Sequence record: FN582354
DNA: 23,229 nucleotides
DNA from: Enterobacteria phage phi80
Direction: 5' to 3' (one strand)
The notes under the pieces: generated by a model
What the model was told of the DNA's origin: nothing
What the model saw: only the letters and a program-made list of their open reading frames with translations
The model's database searches: none
Program-made: the position numbers and the translations under genes
Shown here: positions 2,840 to 23,229 of the stretch, in pieces
Layout: each line of letters starts with the position of its first letter
Numbering within the stretch: the stretch's first letter is position 1

Positions 2840-4428
2840 AAATACCATCTTTAGTGGGTCCTGACGGGAAAACATCCCTCCGGGAATACGCGGGGTATCA
2901 TGGCGGCGGCGGAGGGTTTGGTGGTCAGTTGCGGGGCTGGAATCCACCAAGCGAAAGTGCTGATGCGGCTCTTCTGCCTAACTTCTCGCGCGGAAATGCC
3001 CGTGCTGACGATCTGGTCAGAAATAATGGCTATGCGGCAAACGCCGTGCAGCTCCACCAGGACCACATCGTCGGGTCATTTTTCAGACTCAGCTATCGAC
3101 CGAGCTGGCGCTATCTTGGCATCAATGAGGAGGATTCACGCGCATTTTCGCGGGATGTAGAAGCCGCCTGGAACGAGTATGCCGAGGACGACTTTTGCGG
3201 GATTGATGCCGAGCGTAAGCGAACGTTTACGATGATGATCCGAGAAGGTGTGGCCATGCACGCGTTTAACGGTGAATTATGCACGCAGGCGACCTGGGAC
3301 AGCGATTCAACGCGTCTTTTCCGTACTCAGTTCAAAATGGTCAGTCCGAAGCGCGTCAGCAATCCGAATAATATCGGTGATACCCGGAACTGTCGCGCCG
3401 GTGTGAAAATAAATGATAGCGGTGCTGCGCTGGGATATTACGTCAGCGACGATGGTTATCCCGGCTGGATGGCGCAGAACTGGACCTACATTCCTCGCGA
3501 ACTACCCGGCGGTCGACCTTCATTTATCCATGTATTCGAACCGATGGAGGATGGACAGACCCGTGGGGCCAATGCGTTTTACAGCGTGATGGAGCAGATG
3601 AAAATGCTCGATACCCTGCAAAATACCCAGCTCCAGAGCGCGATAGTGAAGGCTATGTATGCCGCTACCATCGAGAGTGAACTGGATACCCAATCGGCGA
3701 TGGACTTTATTCTCGGCGCGGATAATAAAGAGCAGCAGAGCAAACTTACGGGCTGGCTCGGTGAAATGGCGTCCTATTACTCAGCTGCGCCTGTTCGCCT
3801 GGGTGGGGCAAGGGTTCCACACCTGTTGCCGGGTGATTCTCTCAACCTTCAGTCGGCGCAGGATACCGATAACGGCTACTCGACTTTTGAACAGTCCCTG
3901 CTGCGTTATATTGCCGCTGGGCTTGGTGTGTCGTATGAGCAGCTTTCGCGAAACTATTCGCAGATGAGCTACTCGACCGCACGCGCAAGTGCTAACGAGT
4001 CCTGGGCGTACTTTATGGGGCGTCGCAAGTTTGTGGCATCCCGACAGGCCTGTCAGATGTTTCTTTGCTGGCTTGAAGAGGCGATTGTCCGCCGCGTGGT
4101 CACGCTTCCTTCGAAAGCCCGGTTCAGTTTCCAGGAGGCGAGAACAGCCTGGGGGAATGCCAACTGGATTGGCTCTGGTCGAATGGCAATTGACGGGCTG
4201 AAAGAGGTACAGGAGGCCGTCATGCTCATTGAGGCAGGTCTCAGCACGTATGAAAAAGAGTGCGCCAAACGCGGTGATGATTATCAGGAGATTTTTGCCC
4301 AGCAGGTCCGGGAAACCATGGAGCGTCGTGCTGCGGGTCTGAAACCACCGGCATGGGCCGCTGCAGCTTTTGAGGCCGGAGTGAAAAAATCAAACGAGGA
4401 GGAGCAAGATGGCGCACGAGCTGCGTAA
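2836..4428 (+). CDS. B: portal protein B
   Basis: 530 aa. ATGA start/stop overlap with W. Long stretches ([105 protein letters not shown]) match lambda gpB (recalled). Confidence 0.97.
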
Positions 4429-9786: not shown

Positions 9787-10218
9787 ATGTTTTCGAAAAA
9801 AGAGAAGTTCACCTGGCAAACAGAATCCCTGACCATCTTCGAACTGTCGGCGCTTCAGCGTATTGAGTTCCTGACGTTTATGGCCGCAGAGGAAAGGGCC
9901 GTCAGTGCTGACAGCGAGGGCATCAGCGATCAGGAAATGACGGCCAGGCTGATTGGCTCAAATATTCGCTGCGGTGCGCGTTTGATCGCGATGTCTTTGT
10001 GGCATAACGATCCGGCCGGCACGGATGTGGAAACGTTATATCAGCAGGTGCTGAGCGGCTGGCCGCCGGAGGCGATCGGTAAAGCAGAAATGGAAATAAA
10101 GCTGCTCTCCGGCATGCTCGTTCCGGTTGATGAAGACAACGCTGCCGATCCAGATGGCTCAACGGAGGCCGAAAGCGCAGAAACCGTTACGGCGGAAAAG
10201 CCCTTGCCAGCGAGCTGA
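9787..10218 (+). CDS. G: tail assembly chaperone G (zero-frame product)
   Basis: 143 aa, between V and H. Motif [10 protein letters not shown] matches lambda gpG (AMSLWHN). Ends just past a slippery heptamer. Confidence 0.9.
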   Translation: MFSKKEKFTWQTESLTIFELSALQRIEFLTFMAAEERAVSADSEGISDQEMTARLIGSNIRCGARLIAMSLWHNDPAGTDVETLYQQVLSGWPPEAIGKAEMEIKLLSGMLVPVDEDNAADPDGSTEAESAETVTAEKPLPAS

Positions 10219-14053: not shown

Positions 14054-14791
14054 ATGAGTTTTACGGCAGACATACAACAGCTTGAGCCCGGCAGCGTTAT
14101 TCAGCTGATTGAGATCGACGGCACTGAATTCGGTATGGATCAGGTGCTGCGTTTTCATGCGCACAATATTCAGGAAGAGGGGTGGGCAGCCTTCGCCGCA
14201 GAAAATCTGCCCGCCATTATCTGGCAGGGAAACCAGTACGATCCCCATCCCTACGAACTTAAGGGGATGGAGTTATCGAGTACAGGTTCCCAGCCAACGC
14301 CCACGCTGTCCGTCGGGAACGTCGGAAACTATGTCACCGCGCTGTGTCTTGAATATGACGATATGGTCAGGGCTAAGGTCAAAATCCATACCACGCTTTC
14401 GAAGTATCTCGATGCCGCCAACTGGAAAAACGGTAATCCGGGTGCCAGCCCGGCCGATGAGCGCGTACAGCTCTTTTACGTCAATGCCAAAACCGCAGAG
14501 ACGCGTGTACAGGTTGATTTCGAGCTGTGCTCTCCTTTCGATATTCAGAGCCTGCAGCTGCCGACACGGCAGATTACGCCTGTCTGCACCTGGTGTATGC
14601 GGGGCTGGTACCGAAGCGGGACTGGATGCGATTACAACGGCACGAAATACTTTACCAAAGACGGTACACCGACCGATGACCCGTCGAAAGATGTATGTGG
14701 CGGCCCGCCGCAGGATTGTCAGGATCGTCACGGCCCGGACGCGCCGCTGCCGTTCGGCGGTTTCCCGGCTGCAAACCTGCAGGGGAAATAA
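14054..14791 (+). CDS. L: minor tail protein L (tail tip complex)
   Basis: 245 aa. RBS GGGGGAG upstream. Cysteine-rich C-terminal region (CTWCMRGWYRSGTGCDYNG...CGGPPQDCQDRHG) and overall pattern resemble lambda gpL (recalled). Confidence 0.92.
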   Translation: MSFTADIQQLEPGSVIQLIEIDGTEFGMDQVLRFHAHNIQEEGWAAFAAENLPAIIWQGNQYDPHPYELKGMELSSTGSQPTPTLSVGNVGNYVTALCLEYDDMVRAKVKIHTTLSKYLDAANWKNGNPGASPADERVQLFYVNAKTAETRVQVDFELCSPFDIQSLQLPTRQITPVCTWCMRGWYRSGTGCDYNGTKYFTKDGTPTDDPSKDVCGGPPQDCQDRHGPDAPLPFGGFPAANLQGK

Positions 14792-20537: not shown

Positions 20538-21211
20538 TGGCCGAATTTGGCGCGATGATATTAATGGACAACGGGAACCCATTTGTAACGCCCCAGTCAA
20601 CGCCTTTTTGTCTTTACGGCAAGTACACTTTCAACTCCTCTGCTAATGGCAGTTCGCAGCAGGTTGCTCAGAATATTCGATTAAATGCTGACTACCCTGT
20701 GATGGTATTTATCAGGACCACAAATACCGCCCAGCCCACGCCAGTAATATCTTACCGGAATGGAGGAAATGTATATGTCGCGGGGGTTAATCCCTATAAG
20801 TTGAGCTTCACGTTAACCGCATATATATTTGCCATATTTCCCCAGACGTTACCGAAATGGGGGATGGCCATCTGGGATGCGGCAGGAAAGCTGGTGCTCA
20901 CTAATGAGTCCCGGGTGTTGTCCGACCTACAGACAATTGGAACGCCTGGCGCAAACGGAGGGATAAATATCGATCAGACACAAAACGGGCCATGGGCTGT
21001 TGCACCTGCACAGCTTGGCCAAAGCATCGTTGTGAATAACTCAACCCGGCCTCCGACAATCTACACCATTAATGCTTATTCGGCGTGCAGGTTTGACGGG
21101 GCCAATACGAGGATAAACGCAGGGGGGACCTCCACTGGCACAGGCTCTCCGGGAGGGGTAACGAATACTGGAATTTCCTTAACCGCGATAAATACAGCGG
21201 CCTATGACTGA
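20537..21211 (+). CDS. hypothetical protein (224 aa), translationally coupled to the upstream 100-aa ORF
   Basis: TAATG stop/start overlap at 20534-20539, GGAG 8 nt upstream. Composition is rich in Thr/Asn/Gly/Ser, resembling beta-rich receptor-binding or fibre-like domains. No recognised motif. Confidence 0.65.
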   Translation: MAEFGAMILMDNGNPFVTPQSTPFCLYGKYTFNSSANGSSQQVAQNIRLNADYPVMVFIRTTNTAQPTPVISYRNGGNVYVAGVNPYKLSFTLTAYIFAIFPQTLPKWGMAIWDAAGKLVLTNESRVLSDLQTIGTPGANGGINIDQTQNGPWAVAPAQLGQSIVVNNSTRPPTIYTINAYSACRFDGANTRINAGGTSTGTGSPGGVTNTGISLTAINTAAYD

Positions 21212-21600: not shown

Positions 21601-21616
21601 ATTGCCTGGAGAAAAT

Positions 21617-22873
21617 ATGCTTTATAACACCGGCACCATCGCCATTAATAGAAATACCGCCACCGGGACGGGTACAAACTGGACGGCACCGGCCAGCCAG
21701 GTTCGCGCTGGCCAGACAATTATCGTGATGTCTAACCCGGTGCAACTGTTCCAGATTTCATCCGTGAACAGCGCCACGTCAATGACGGTTACGCCTGCCG
21801 CTTCCCCGGCGCTGAGCGGCCAGAAGTACGGCATTCTGGTATCAGATAATATCTCGGTTGATGGGCTGGCGCAGGCCATGTCGCAGCTTATCAAGGAGTA
21901 TGACGAGAATATTGGTGCGTGGGAGACGTTCGCCACAACCTCAGCCAACCAGAACATTACCGTTACGATCAATGGCACCAGTTTATCAATCCCGGCTCTT
22001 GGGAAATTACTGCAGAAGGGGAGCAACGGAGCTTTGCCGGTTAATCAAGGTGGTACTGGCGCACCCTCGGCATGGGAAGCCACAAAAAATCTAAAAACAT
22101 TAAGGACGATGGAGCGAAGATTTGGACCAGGTGATGAGCCAAGAGATGGCGGCTGGTCCAATACTATTGGTTTTGTGGTGGGGCAAACGTCCACAGGGGC
22201 AAATGGAGCGTTTGTTGATTTTACAAGTTTCGATCAGTCGGCCAGGCTACAGATCATTGGTTTTTATTCTGACTCTCAAAACCACAATGGTGTCGGGTAT
22301 AATCTGTGGCATCCCAACTTACAAACATGGTATCCATTCACAACGCTCAGGGATAACAGAAACACAACCGTAGATTCGAACGGTTTCATAAAGGTTGCAT
22401 CTCCCATTGTAAAGATATTCAGGGATGGTAGCTATGAAACGAATGAAGAGTCGGAGGGAATTGATGTTACCCACATAAATACAGGTGAGTATTTGATAGC
22501 AGGTTGCACCGGCCTTAATGCAGATGCAGCATGGGGAGGGATCGATGGTGGATTTGAAATTCCGGTAGACAGGAACAAGCTCGCGCGCATCTGGCTTGAT
22601 TATGAAGTGAATGCTGATGGCTCTGTTCTGGTAAAAACATATCACCGTACACACCCGAAAGCGCCTGAGTTTGCAAGAAACGAAATCAACGGGTTAACTA
22701 ATGGCGAGCCAGTAGACATTCCTGCAGATTCTTTTGTTTCCGCACGTGTTGAAATGCCCCCAGAAAGTATCTGGAACCAGCTTTCCGTACGTGTTGAAAT
22801 GCCACCAGATAGTATCTGGAACCAGCGACAGAATGATGCTTTGGAAGCAGACGTGCAGAAACCTACCTCATAA
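21617..22873 (+). CDS. putative side tail fibre / receptor-binding protein (Stf-like position)
   Basis: 419 aa from ATG 21617, GGAG 6 nt upstream (the track ORF starts at 21602). Thr/Asn/Gly-rich, fibre-like N-terminal half (NRNTATGTGTNWTAP..., NITVTINGTSLSIPALG, NQGGTGA). C-terminal half is visibly AT-richer and contains a 45-bp tandem repeat. Assignment rests on composition and position, not recognised identity. Confidence 0.6.
   Translation: MLYNTGTIAINRNTATGTGTNWTAPASQVRAGQTIIVMSNPVQLFQISSVNSATSMTVTPAASPALSGQKYGILVSDNISVDGLAQAMSQLIKEYDENIGAWETFATTSANQNITVTINGTSLSIPALGKLLQKGSNGALPVNQGGTGAPSAWEATKNLKTLRTMERRFGPGDEPRDGGWSNTIGFVVGQTSTGANGAFVDFTSFDQSARLQIIGFYSDSQNHNGVGYNLWHPNLQTWYPFTTLRDNRNTTVDSNGFIKVASPIVKIFRDGSYETNEESEGIDVTHINTGEYLIAGCTGLNADAAWGGIDGGFEIPVDRNKLARIWLDYEVNADGSVLVKTYHRTHPKAPEFARNEINGLTNGEPVDIPADSFVSARVEMPPESIWNQLSVRVEMPPDSIWNQRQNDALEADVQKPTS
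22737..22826 (+). repeat. 45-bp tandem direct repeat (2 copies, 3 mismatches) inside the 3' end of the fibre-like gene
   Basis: TTTCCGCACGTGTTGAAATGCCCCCAGAAAGTATCTGGAACCAGC at 22737-22781 versus TTTCCGTACGTGTTGAAATGCCACCAGATAGTATCTGGAACCAGC at 22782-22826. Encodes SARVEMPPESIWNQL / SVRVEMPPDSIWNQR. Confidence 0.85.
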
Positions 22874-22879
22874 GTAAAA

Positions 22880-22912
22880 CCGCCGCAAGTCGTATGCAAG
22901 AACGTGCGGCGG
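22880..22912 (+). other. hairpin (8-bp GC-rich stem, 17-nt loop) directly after the fibre-gene stop, with no T-tract
   Basis: CCGCCGCA (22880-22887) and TGCGGCGG (22905-22912) are perfect reverse complements. Confidence 0.4.
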
Positions 22913-23080
22913 CAGGCTGGCGTTCGTTCGATAGTGCGAGTATTGAATGATTTCCAGCCGTTACCGATTTTACTATGTTTTCAGTAGAACGCTTAGACAA
23001 AACTGAGGCGCACAAAAGCTTTGCACTGGACTGCAAGGTGTTGTGCTTCTCTGGAGTGCGATATGTTTGATGACAAAAAA

Positions 23081-23115
23081 TTAGCGCAAGAGGACAACAA
23101 ATCACCTTGCGCTAA
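23081..23115 (+). repeat. perfect 10-bp inverted repeat with 15-nt spacer in the AT-rich non-coding region
   Basis: TTAGCGCAAG (23081-23090) and CTTGCGCTAA (23106-23115) are exact reverse complements. The repeat lies inside a possible 27-codon ORF (23063-23146). Confidence 0.5.
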
Positions 23116-23229
23116 TGCTCTGCTACAGGTCACTAATACTATCTAAGTAGTTGATTCATATGACTGGATATGTTGTGTTTGTCGCATTATGTAGTCTATT
23201 TTTTAGACTAAAGATATTGTAATGCATTG

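Follow-up and report, generated by a model that had tools for sequence, protein, structure and literature searches.

The window analysed here is a 23,229-nt stretch of DNA from Enterobacteria phage phi80 (sequence record FN582354). Its last 356 nt (22874-23229) follow a tail-fibre gene, with which the rightward late operon ends. The G+C content of this tail is 42%, against 53% for the whole window, consistent with an earlier note on this DNA that described the tail as AT-rich. The features of the locus, in window coordinates, are:

21602-22873, + strand: tail-fibre gene of the phi80 gp25 type (ORF list; 99.7% identity to phi80)
22877-22975, no strand assigned: element of about 100 bp, comprising the dyad 1 hairpin, a stem GGCTGG/CCAGCC (22915-22920 / 22955-22960) and a stretch ending in GATTTTAC (homology, covariation)
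22880-22912, - strand: dyad 1, GC-rich hairpin (inverted repeat; compensatory changes)
22929-22960, no strand: mosaic joint (three-way alignment: phi80-specific bases on the left, HK106-specific bases on the right)
23011-23045, + strand: long imperfect hairpin in common with lambda (27475-27508), absent from the list of the earlier note (alignment, folds)
23063-23146, + strand: 27-codon ORF, judged spurious; overlaps sib, P1 and the first bases of IHF site H1
23073-23123, - strand: putative sib retroregulatory hairpin with extended stem, presumed RNase III substrate (minus-strand fold; alignment onto HK97 and HK022 sib)
23074-23116, - strand: putative tI intrinsic terminator, dyad 2 (stem 23080-23090 / 23106-23116) plus U6 at 23079-23074 (stem identity to lambda)
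23126-23137, + strand: arm-type Int site P1, CAGGTCACTAAT, identical to lambda 27588-27599
23144-23156, - strand: core of IHF site H1, TAAGTAGTTGATT, the reverse complement of AATCAACTACTTA, identical to lambda 27606-27618
23158-23167, - strand: arm-type Int site P2 with a private 1-nt deletion, within the lambda 'int 2' site 27615-27634
23168-23202, + strand: Xis tract X1-X1.5-X2 (alignment to lambda 27631-27666)
23194-23208, no strand: Fis site F, GTCTATTTTTTAGAC, the heart of dyad 3 (23192-23210), at the same position as lambda GTCTGTTTTTTATGC (27658-27672, -74 to -60)

The tail contains three inverted repeats. Dyad 1 (CCGCCGCA at 22880-22887 and TGCGGCGG at 22905-22912) is perfect over 8 bp with a spacer of 17 nt, and can be extended to 11 bp with one mismatch and a loop of 11 nt. 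Dyad 2 (ATTAGCGCAAG at 23080-23090 and CTTGCGCTAAT at 23106-23116) is perfect over 11 bp with a spacer of 15 nt. Dyad 3 consists of TAGTCTA (23192-23198) and TAGACTA (23204-23210) with TTTTT between them. Reading of the sequence, a repeat search and a separate scan place dyads 1 and 3 exactly where the earlier note had them; dyad 2 had been located correctly as well, but its arms had been given as 10 bp (23081-23090 and 23106-23115) and are actually 11 bp. Among 5000 dinucleotide-preserving shuffles of the 356 nt, with spacers of 3-20, 5 contain a perfect inverted repeat of 11 bp or more, 35 one of 10 bp or more, 464 one of 8 bp or more and 1576 one of 7 bp or more. Dyad 2 is far beyond chance, and the claim that a perfect 10-bp dyad is improbable in about 350 bp is right (35 of 5000 shuffles). 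The case of dyad 1 is marginal (9%), and dyad 3 by itself is not unusual (32%). The significance of dyads 1 and 3 comes from their conservation, not from their length.

Both 10-nt stem arms of dyad 2 are identical to lambda 27544-27553 and 27568-27577. Of 68 unique relatives, 66 have exactly this stem and two have a single-base change in it; because the stem is almost invariant, it provides no covariation evidence. On the minus strand, an upper stem of 12 bp is followed by UUUUUUG, while the + strand has no U-tract. The minus-strand fold of sib has an energy of -24.7 kcal/mol (z = -3.8), and its predicted lower stem GCAGAG/UUUUGU pairs 23118-23123 with 23073-23078, including three G·U pairs that are impossible on the + strand. 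Specifically, 23073-23123 aligns exactly with the 'sib retroregulation site' of HK97 (21042-21091), the same nucleotides constitute the 'sib transcription processing site' of HK022, and the records of phages 434 and O276 label the tI nucleotides 'terminator'. The hairpin is located directly to the left of P1, with int beyond the window; in HK106, HK97 and 434, int comes next on the minus strand. The RNA reading of dyad 2 draws on the U-tract, the strand-specific G·U pairs and lambda genetics, and it agrees with the proposal of a minus-strand terminator for transcription from the adjacent region: dyad 2 would be tI, serving int transcripts that arrive from the right.

In lambda-type phages, sib is distal to int, and the expression of int from pI differs from that from pL (PMC2951348, PMC5300877). 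By analogy, CII-activated int transcripts from pI would end at tI (dyad 2 plus U6) and remain stable, while N-antiterminated transcripts from pL would pass tI and the hairpin would gain its lower stem (GCAGAG with UUUUGU). RNase III would cut the extended sib hairpin, and the int message would decay from its 3' end, namely by retroregulation. Guarneros et al. in 1982 and Schindler and Echols in 1981 reportedly described how int mRNA from pL is cut by RNase III and decays 3'-to-5'. In the prophage, attP would be split, so sib would be parted from int.

To the right of sib, 23126-23229 matches the P arm of a lambda-type attP, as judged from sequence and site positions. We infer from relatives that it belongs to a complete attP, of which int and the att core are outside the window. 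The P1 site is kept in 67 of 68 unique relatives, and its lambda counterpart (27588-27599) falls in the annotated 'int 1' binding site of lambda (27583-27602). The sequence AATCAACTACTTA of IHF site H1 fits the IHF consensus WATCAANNNNTTR. The stem of dyad 2, P1, IHF site H1, P2 and X2 are conserved in alignments to lambda, HK97, HK106, HK022, 434 and others. X1 occupies 23168-23180, with a T-run one base shorter than in relatives, and X2 occupies 23188-23202; the layout of the arm follows PMC4880445, and the roles of the Xis sites are described in PMC7145599 and PMC4880445.

The centre of the putative Fis site (23201) is 67 bp from the predicted centre of the core. Site F is described as about 65 bp from the region of strand exchange and as overlapping X2 (PMC7145599). 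Because both the position and the overlap with X2 match, dyad 3 is best assigned, on sequence grounds, as the pseudo-palindromic site for a Fis dimer. Inspection by eye of variant right arms indicates that a G and a C 15 bp apart and an A/T-rich centre are kept, while the right arm of the palindrome varies. The earlier suggestion of a recombinase site was therefore half right: dyad 3 is in the P arm of attP, but as a site for host Fis over X2 and not as a core site for the recombinase.

In HK106, HK97 and 434, the lambda core is found 30 nt past the equivalent of the window end, and int and xis come after it, both on the minus strand. The 15-bp core GCTTTTTTATACTAA would thus be expected about 30-31 nt past the end of the window, at about 23260-23274, and beyond it would come the P' arm (GTTGGCATTATAAAAAAGC...) and then int on the minus strand. 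Junctions in E. coli 81, KTa005 and ETEC6 run from the P arm through the core GCTTTTTTATACTAA into the B' arm and ybhB-bioA; by sequence, they correspond to attR at the lambda attB site. In such a site, the P-arm sites would bend the DNA and Int would bridge arm and core; integration would use P1 with IHF, while excision would use P2 with Xis and Fis.

The P2 site departs from this pattern. It reads ATATGACTGG here and ATAGTGACTG(G/C) in every compared relative; where an inverted CAGTCACTAT-type site is expected, the window has CCAGTCATAT, without the C of CACTAT. A 25-mer spanning the deletion has no match in the viral, metagenome and genome contig collections, while the intact 26-mer is found in 72 viral contigs. 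The 269 nt around P2 differ from the closest relatives by three indels and no substitutions, the indels being an extra A at 23014, a missing G after 23160 and a missing T near 23177, and the phi80-type part of the window shows discrepancies of a swap type. Because indels without substitutions surround it and swap-type discrepancies occur elsewhere, the deletion is probably a sequencing error. If the deletion and the short X1 T-run are real, attP is damaged and excision is probably impaired; with the P2 deletion, the phage should integrate yet excise poorly.

Two other explanations have been offered for the nucleotides around dyad 2. One is that the ORF at 23063-23146 encodes a small protein and that dyad 2 is incidental coding sequence. 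The ATG at 23063, the TAA at 23144-23146, the GGAG 6 nt upstream of the ATG and the translation are all as the earlier note gave them, and some of the relatives with the same left flank have the ORF intact (for example, L134). However, an in-frame ATG is present in just 15 of 66 unique relatives; it is absent from the other 51 because conservation starts only at (G/A)ACAAAAAATTAGCGC, and lambda has ACAGG at the position of the ATG. The loop of dyad 2 is 14 nt in 22 relatives, 15 nt in 41 and 16 nt in 3, which would yield three unrelated C-terminal peptides, and the DNA of the stem, P1 and IHF site H1 stays constant despite these frame shifts. The codons coincide with the mapped sib, P1 and H1 sites, and the ORF has no match in Pfam or PHROG; the same searches gave no match for a minus-strand 80-aa ORF (22863-23105) or for a 41-aa ORF on the + strand. 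We therefore abandon the idea that the 27-codon ORF is coding, which is extremely unlikely. Equally unlikely is the proposal that the dyads are operators, namely repeated palindromic sites for a transcriptional regulator of phage or host. Dyad 2 is indeed a long perfect palindrome, and dyad 3 is a site of a dimeric DNA-binding protein (Fis). However, the three dyads share no sequence kinship, and the arms of dyad 2 have no second copy anywhere in the 23-kb window, which argues against repeated operators. A simple terminator/promoter scan detected no promoter-like site in 22500-23229, and the spacer of dyad 2, varying from 14 to 16 nt among relatives, is ill-suited to a fixed dimer site. The sequence and position of dyad 2 are those of lambda tI/sib, which remains the preferred reading.

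The long imperfect hairpin at 23011-23045 is much more stable on the + strand than on the minus strand (-23.5 vs -15.8 kcal/mol), as is its lambda counterpart (-24.3 vs -15.6 kcal/mol). It is followed by CUUCUCU, and the terminator-like match of the scan (23018-23039, + strand) is inside it. It is possibly a rightward terminator or an RNA 3' end. The simple scan takes loops of 3-8 nt only, and hence passes over tI and dyad 1.

Dyad 1 begins 6 nt past the stop codon of the fibre gene, and on the minus strand it is followed by the terminator-like UUUUAC (22879-22874). It is part of the element at 22877-22975, which is present in 5237 of 5426 complete E. coli genomes (97%) and in at least 120 viral contigs; genomes that have it carry it in as many as 8 places (median 2). 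The element has sharp boundaries, with differing flanks on either side. It adjoins a DinI gene in L026 (Pfam DinI, E=1e-19) and in phi80 (dinL, a gene under LexA control), and in most other phages it provides a DinI-like gene on the minus strand with its 3' UTR and terminator. By homology, the copy in the window is best read as an orphan remnant of the 3' UTR/terminator of a DinI-type moron cassette.

Covariation was assessed with a register-aware pair count for the dyad 1 hairpin (51 unique versions) and with a fixed-structure count for the element. In the dyad 1 hairpin, 477 of 561 cells are paired (85%), with CG to TA and AT to GC to CG exchanges in both directions at several pairs. The outer stem of the element is 96% paired, with G-C to A-U changes. 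The 6 nt upstream of the dyad 1 hairpin on the + strand are 63% A, corresponding to a minus-strand U-tract. The hairpin thus combines the GC-rich stem, the compensatory changes and the U-tract of a terminator, with an 11-nt loop that is larger than typical. Most likely, this hairpin and its minus-strand UUUU would serve as a back-stop terminator where two transcription units converge. The mean fold energy of the hairpin is the same on both strands (-17.1 vs -17.1 kcal/mol) and gives no strand signal.

We consider it unlikely, but well worth weighing, that the element instead acts on the + strand, as a structured 3' end or terminator of the late fibre mRNA or as a small RNA derived from a 3' UTR. 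The hairpin is 6 nt past the stop codons of many fibre and tail-fibre-assembly genes, but its + strand flank is (C/T)TGGCT, without a U-tract, and the U-rich GAUUUUAC comes 7 nt past the second stem. The whole element folds to -42.3 kcal/mol (z = -4.3) on the + strand and to -35.7 kcal/mol (z = -4.0) on the minus strand. The second stem has 14 G·U cells, as well as a G·U pair kept in 41 of 42 sequences, that exist on the + strand only, whereas G·U pairs in the dyad 1 hairpin are about twice as many on the minus strand, and an inner helix predicted only on the + strand shows no covariation. A search of Rfam at permissive E-values with the region and four related loci returned nothing except a match to CssrB (RF02799) on the + strand, but this match reaches 33.9 bits, where the gathering score is 76, and deletes more than 100 positions of the model, so membership was rejected; phi80, HK633 and HK106 score 29-34 bits. 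DinR of Klebsiella is an sRNA from the 3' UTR of the dinI region, though in the sense of dinI, and its seed region is described as Klebsiella-specific (PMC10907235). EcOnc27, located downstream of stx2B, was also considered and is unrelated. Very unlikely is the explanation that the element is an attP identity block for an integrase of the Sf6/HK633 type, left here as a relic. The HK633 record does label the homologous 81 bp 'attP ... similar to non-coding region between ykgJ and yagV', and the K-12 copy is located between ykgJ and ecpE. However, that copy is beside the remnant of a DinI-like pseudogene, and looks like a prophage relic and not like a pristine attB. The element is present in as many as 8 places in an E. 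coli genome (median 2), the phages that carry it encode many kinds of integrase, and the covariation of the hairpin points to selection on structure and not to an identity block. A tRNA scan of the region gave no match, which speaks against an att block derived from a tRNA. The reading as a leftover DinI-type terminator is preferred.

We regard it as doubtful, and put it forward tentatively, that the element is a structured RNA of a kind not yet described, built from the covarying GC hairpin, the covarying stem GGCUGG/CCAGCC and a 32-nt invariant core. No RNA product of the element is documented in the literature searched. By analogy, candidates may include an sRNA from the 3' UTR of the prophage DinI-like gene, as for DinR in Klebsiella, or an overlap of convergent 3' UTRs by which the expression of late operon and moron is coupled.

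The sequence type of the window changes at about 22960, from phi80 on the left to the HK106/lambda type on the right. Window 2-22977 is 99.7% identical to phi80, and the phi80 match stops at 22977; relative to phi80, the tail-fibre gene carries a 45-bp tandem duplication (22737-22826). HK106 is 96% identical over 22870-23229 and 98.4% identical over 23040-23229. In the three-way alignment, the mosaic joint is within the invariant core of the dyad 1 element. The element would have served as the homology patch for recombination of a phi80 arm with an HK106-type module, and it appears to be a preferred joint for homologous recombination between lambdoid modules. Patterns specific to this junction have no match in the viral contigs. 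A very widespread, sharply bounded, structured non-coding block at a mosaic joint merits study at the transcript level.

Taken together, the 356-nt tail is very probably the non-coding stretch where the rightward late (tail) operon of a mosaic lambdoid phage meets its leftward integration module, containing a leftover terminator, sib/tI and the P arm of attP. This reading is based on sequence homology, site positions, predicted folds, the attR junctions by bio and the covariation of the dyad 1 hairpin; termination, RNase III cleavage and protein binding across 22874-23229 we infer from lambda biology. Retroregulation by sib/tI and the P arm of attP are textbook lambda features, and the homologous nucleotides are already annotated in HK97, HK022 and 434. 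For annotation, the region should be labelled sib/tI and attP (P arm), and the small ORF should be left out of the gene calls. The cut of the window falls inside attP, which is worth flagging to users of the sequence.

Compared with known systems, the dyad 1 element resembles the 3' UTR/terminator of prophage DinI-like genes (the phi80 dinL/msgA cassette), in that phi80 and many prophages have the element 22877-22975 after the stop codon of a minus-strand DinI-family gene; however, there is no DinI ORF here. CssrB (RF02799, chromosome-encoded Shigella sRNA B) resembles dyad 1 on the + strand in its 3' terminal hairpin and a few preceding bases. The sib/tI region has the same stem (TTAGCGCAAG...CTTGCGCTAA), U6 tract and GCAGAG lower-stem partner as lambda (27537-27585 region), and the same position just outside P1, with the orientation to int equal in relatives. 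Unlike in lambda, the loop is 15 nt (GAGGACAACAAATCAC type) instead of 14 nt, and the flank to the left of the U-tract is of the HK106 type; its function here would follow by analogy. The P arm has the order and spacing of sites of the lambda attP P arm (P1-H1-P2-X1-X1.5-X2/F-H2; lambda, HK97, HK106, 434), with P1, H1 and X2/F near-identical, and over 190 nt it is 88.5% identical to lambda and 98.4% identical to HK106. The attR of E. coli 81 and KTa005 is identical to the arm in the window except for three single-base indels. In contrast to a lambda-type attP, the window stops at about -39, short of the core, the P' arm and the greater part of H2; P2 has one base less and the X1 T-run one T less. 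Finally, the lambda Fis site GTCTGTTTTTTATGC is not a perfect palindrome, whereas the site here is a perfect 7+7.

We identify the tail of the window (22874–23229) as a widespread moron 3'-UTR/terminator remnant followed by tI/sib, the int terminator/retroregulator, and the attP P arm. The window has the lambdoid gene order, starting with nu1 at 191, and is 99.7% identical to phi80 over 2–22977. Its identity to HK106 is 96% from 22870 to the window end and 98.4% over 23040–23229, a stretch of 190 nt that is 88.5% identical to lambda. Reading of 22500–23229 confirmed all coordinates of the earlier note, and the tail is AT-rich as reported, with a G+C content of 42% vs 53% in the window. The inverted repeats and the short open reading frame (ORF) are as follows.

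22880–22887 / 22905–22912, dyad 1, arms CCGCCGCA / TGCGGCGG
23080–23090 / 23106–23116, dyad 2, arms ATTAGCGCAAG / CTTGCGCTAAT, 11 bp perfect, spacer 15 nt
23192–23210, dyad 3, TAGTCTA-TTTTT-TAGACTA
23063 (ATG) to 23144–23146 (TAA), + strand, 27-codon ORF, GGAG 6 nt upstream

Dyad 2 is perfect with a 15-nt spacer, as described, but its arms are 11 bp long rather than 10 bp. In 5000 dinucleotide-preserving shuffles, perfect inverted repeats of at least 11 bp were found in 5, of at least 8 bp in 464, and of at least 7 bp in 1576. Dyad 2 is thus the sole dyad improbable by itself. The earlier note had considered repeated operators, but a second copy of the dyad 2 arms is absent from the window, where the arms are unique. 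It had also considered a minus-strand terminator, and folding in both orientations fits this reading. Specifically, on the minus strand the dyad 2 hairpin is directly followed by U6 and gains a lower stem, GCAGAG/UUUUGU, with three G.U pairs (−24.7 kcal/mol, z = −3.8), whereas on the + strand folding gives the 11-bp stem alone, without a U-tract.

In alignments of the window with lambda, HK97, HK106, HK022, 434, and six more phages, conservation sets in abruptly at (G/A)ACAAAAAATTAGCGC and continues rightward through the dyad 2 hairpin. The extended hairpin (23073–23123) has the exact span of the HK97 sib annotation transferred via the alignment. Among unique relatives, only 2 of 68 carry a single-base change in the stem, and the loop is 14, 15 or 16 nt long. 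Dyad 2 is accordingly annotated here, by homology, as the predicted tI/sib. Just before it, the window and lambda have in common a long imperfect hairpin (23011–23045; lambda 27475–27508), for which we know of no annotation. In both phages the + strand fold is favoured by ~8 kcal/mol over the minus-strand fold. The hairpin, which precedes CUUCUCU, may act as a rightward terminator or form the end of an RNA.

The ORF, with its GGAG at the reported 6-nt spacing, was rejected as a small protein gene. The in-frame ATG is present in only 15 of 66 unique relatives (lambda has ACAGG instead), the loop-length variants give three downstream frames while the DNA of the stem, P1, and the IHF site stays unchanged, and the translation has no match in Pfam or PHROG. 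Judged by this conservation, the ORF is incidental to conserved non-coding sites.

The stretch 23126–23229 is, by its alignment with lambda (core 27724–27738, centre 27732) and the arm layout of PMC4880445, the predicted attP P arm, with these sites.

23126–23137, P1, Int arm site; lambda 27588–27599, within annotated 'int 1'
23144–23156, H1 core, IHF site; lambda 27606–27618
23158–23167, P2, Int arm site; lambda 27620–27630, within annotated 'int 2'
23168–23180, X1, Xis site; lambda 27631–27644
23188–23202, X2, Xis site; lambda 27652–27666
23194–23208, F, Fis site; lambda 27658–27672

Because the HK106 core starts 30 nt past the equivalent of the window end, the core should lie at 23260–23274. 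The centre of F is 67 bp from the centre of this inferred core, in agreement with the report that F is 'about 65 bp' from the crossover region and that 'X2 overlaps F' (PMC7145599). Relatives differ in the right arm of dyad 3 (TAGACT, AAGCT, AACCA, ATGCA, AATCA), but all five forms, by eye, keep a G and a C at a distance of 15 bp with an A/T-rich centre between them. Therefore, a Fis-type site rather than a palindrome is conserved, and dyad 3 is a predicted Fis site.

In the chromosomes of E. coli 81, KTa005, and ETEC6, the P-arm sequence runs on into GCTTTTTTATACTAA and then departs from attP into CTTGAGCGAAACG..., adjoining ybhB-bioA. This junction is attR at the lambda attachment site, and such junctions are direct support for att function. 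Many E. coli chromosomes carry beside ybhB-bioA a 362-nt remnant comprising the ~100-bp element (22877–22975), sib, P arm, and core. In ETEC6 (L136, 1501–1862), the one example examined of a 91.5%-identity match that recurs in many other genomes, a diguanylate cyclase gene and not phage tail genes lies on its other side; the remnant is therefore a fossil attR at the lambda site.

Compared with the E. coli 81/KTa005 attR over 22961–23229, the window has three single-base indels and no substitution: an extra A at 23014 (23011–23014), a missing G in P2 (23158–23167), and a missing T in the X1 T-run (23177). HK106 counts with these two among the closest relatives. P2 is intact in every other sequence examined; the deleted 25-mer was found in none of three public collections of contigs (viral, metagenome, and genome), and 72 viral contigs have the intact 26-mer. 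Because P2 is occupied in the excisive complex only (PMC4880445, PMC7145599), excision should suffer if the deletion is real. Compared with JX871397, the phi80-type part shows adjacent-base swaps (TC/CT, CG/GC), paired +1/−1 indels that shift the frame locally in the K-like and morF regions, a 25-bp insertion, and a 3-bp deletion (7163, 8104, 9793–9794, 14706–14709, 14879/14898, 16125/16142, 20678–20679). They are probably discrepancies of sequencing, the window and JX871397 being two determinations of almost the same genome. Since swaps and paired indels are typical of such discrepancies, the P2 lesion is probably a sequencing error.

The ~100-bp element that contains dyad 1 (hairpin H1) is sharply bounded. 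Among 5426 complete E. coli genomes, 5237 carry it, with a median of 2 and a maximum of 8 places each; it is also present in 197 phage records and at least 120 viral contigs. On its left it adjoins the stop codons of a wide variety of fibre/assembly genes; on the right there are several alternatives, most commonly a DinI-family gene on the minus strand, whose stop codon adjoins the element (L026, 8806–9054, Pfam DinI E=1e-19; phi80 dinL). In K-12 (DH10B locus L013, 1985–2084), the copy is located between ykgJ and ecpE and borders the remnant of a DinI-like pseudogene. Two stems of the element covary and its core is invariant; Rfam gave no family at threshold, the sole match being to CssrB, below threshold. 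The label 'attP' that the homologous stretch bears in the HK633 record looks doubtful.

Pairing in dyad 1 is kept in 477 of 561 cells (51 unique versions) despite varying sequence, with CG<->TA and AT<->GC<->CG exchanges, and A makes up 63% of its 5' flank on the + strand, corresponding to a minus-strand U-tract. For these reasons, a putative minus-strand terminator is the best and a somewhat probable reading of dyad 1. However, its fold energies are equal on both strands, and G.U pairs are more numerous on the minus strand. Pairing in the second stem, GGCTGG/CCAGCC, reaches 96%; G-C to A-U changes affect 9 cells at three pairs (7 at the innermost), and 14 G.U cells are valid on the + strand only, as is the predicted inner helix.

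In a three-way alignment, phi80-type sequence gives way to HK106-type sequence inside an invariant 32-bp stretch (22929–22960). Because the switch falls within this core, the element looks like a homology patch for module exchange. The exact junction is found in no record of the phage or E. coli collections. Right of the element, phi80 has dinL and the window phage sib-attP. Near the 3' end of the tail-fibre gene, the window has a 45-bp tandem duplication (22737–22826; 2.0 copies, 93% matching) that doubles the peptide VEMPP(E/D)SIWNQ; phi80 has a single copy. LexA boxes are predicted in the phi80 record (L005) at 2672–2687, in the fibre gene 3' end and within the segment duplicated in the window, and at 3136–3151, upstream of dinL.

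The finding is real but ordinary, and this regulatory/recombination region is a known one; only the ~100-bp element has some potential for novelty. By the retroregulation mechanism (PMC5300877, PMC2951348, and original papers), pI transcripts would end at tI and remain stable. N-modified pL transcripts would pass tI and form a longer hairpin, to be cut by RNase III and decay, and Int would thus stay low while Xis is made. Integration, by splitting attP, would uncouple sib from int. Lambda 27544–27553 and 27568–27577 are identical to the two dyad 2 stem arms, respectively. The homologous 50 nt are annotated in HK97 as 'sib retroregulation site' on the minus strand, and the homologous nucleotides in HK022 as 'sib transcription processing site' and in 434 and O276 as a terminator.
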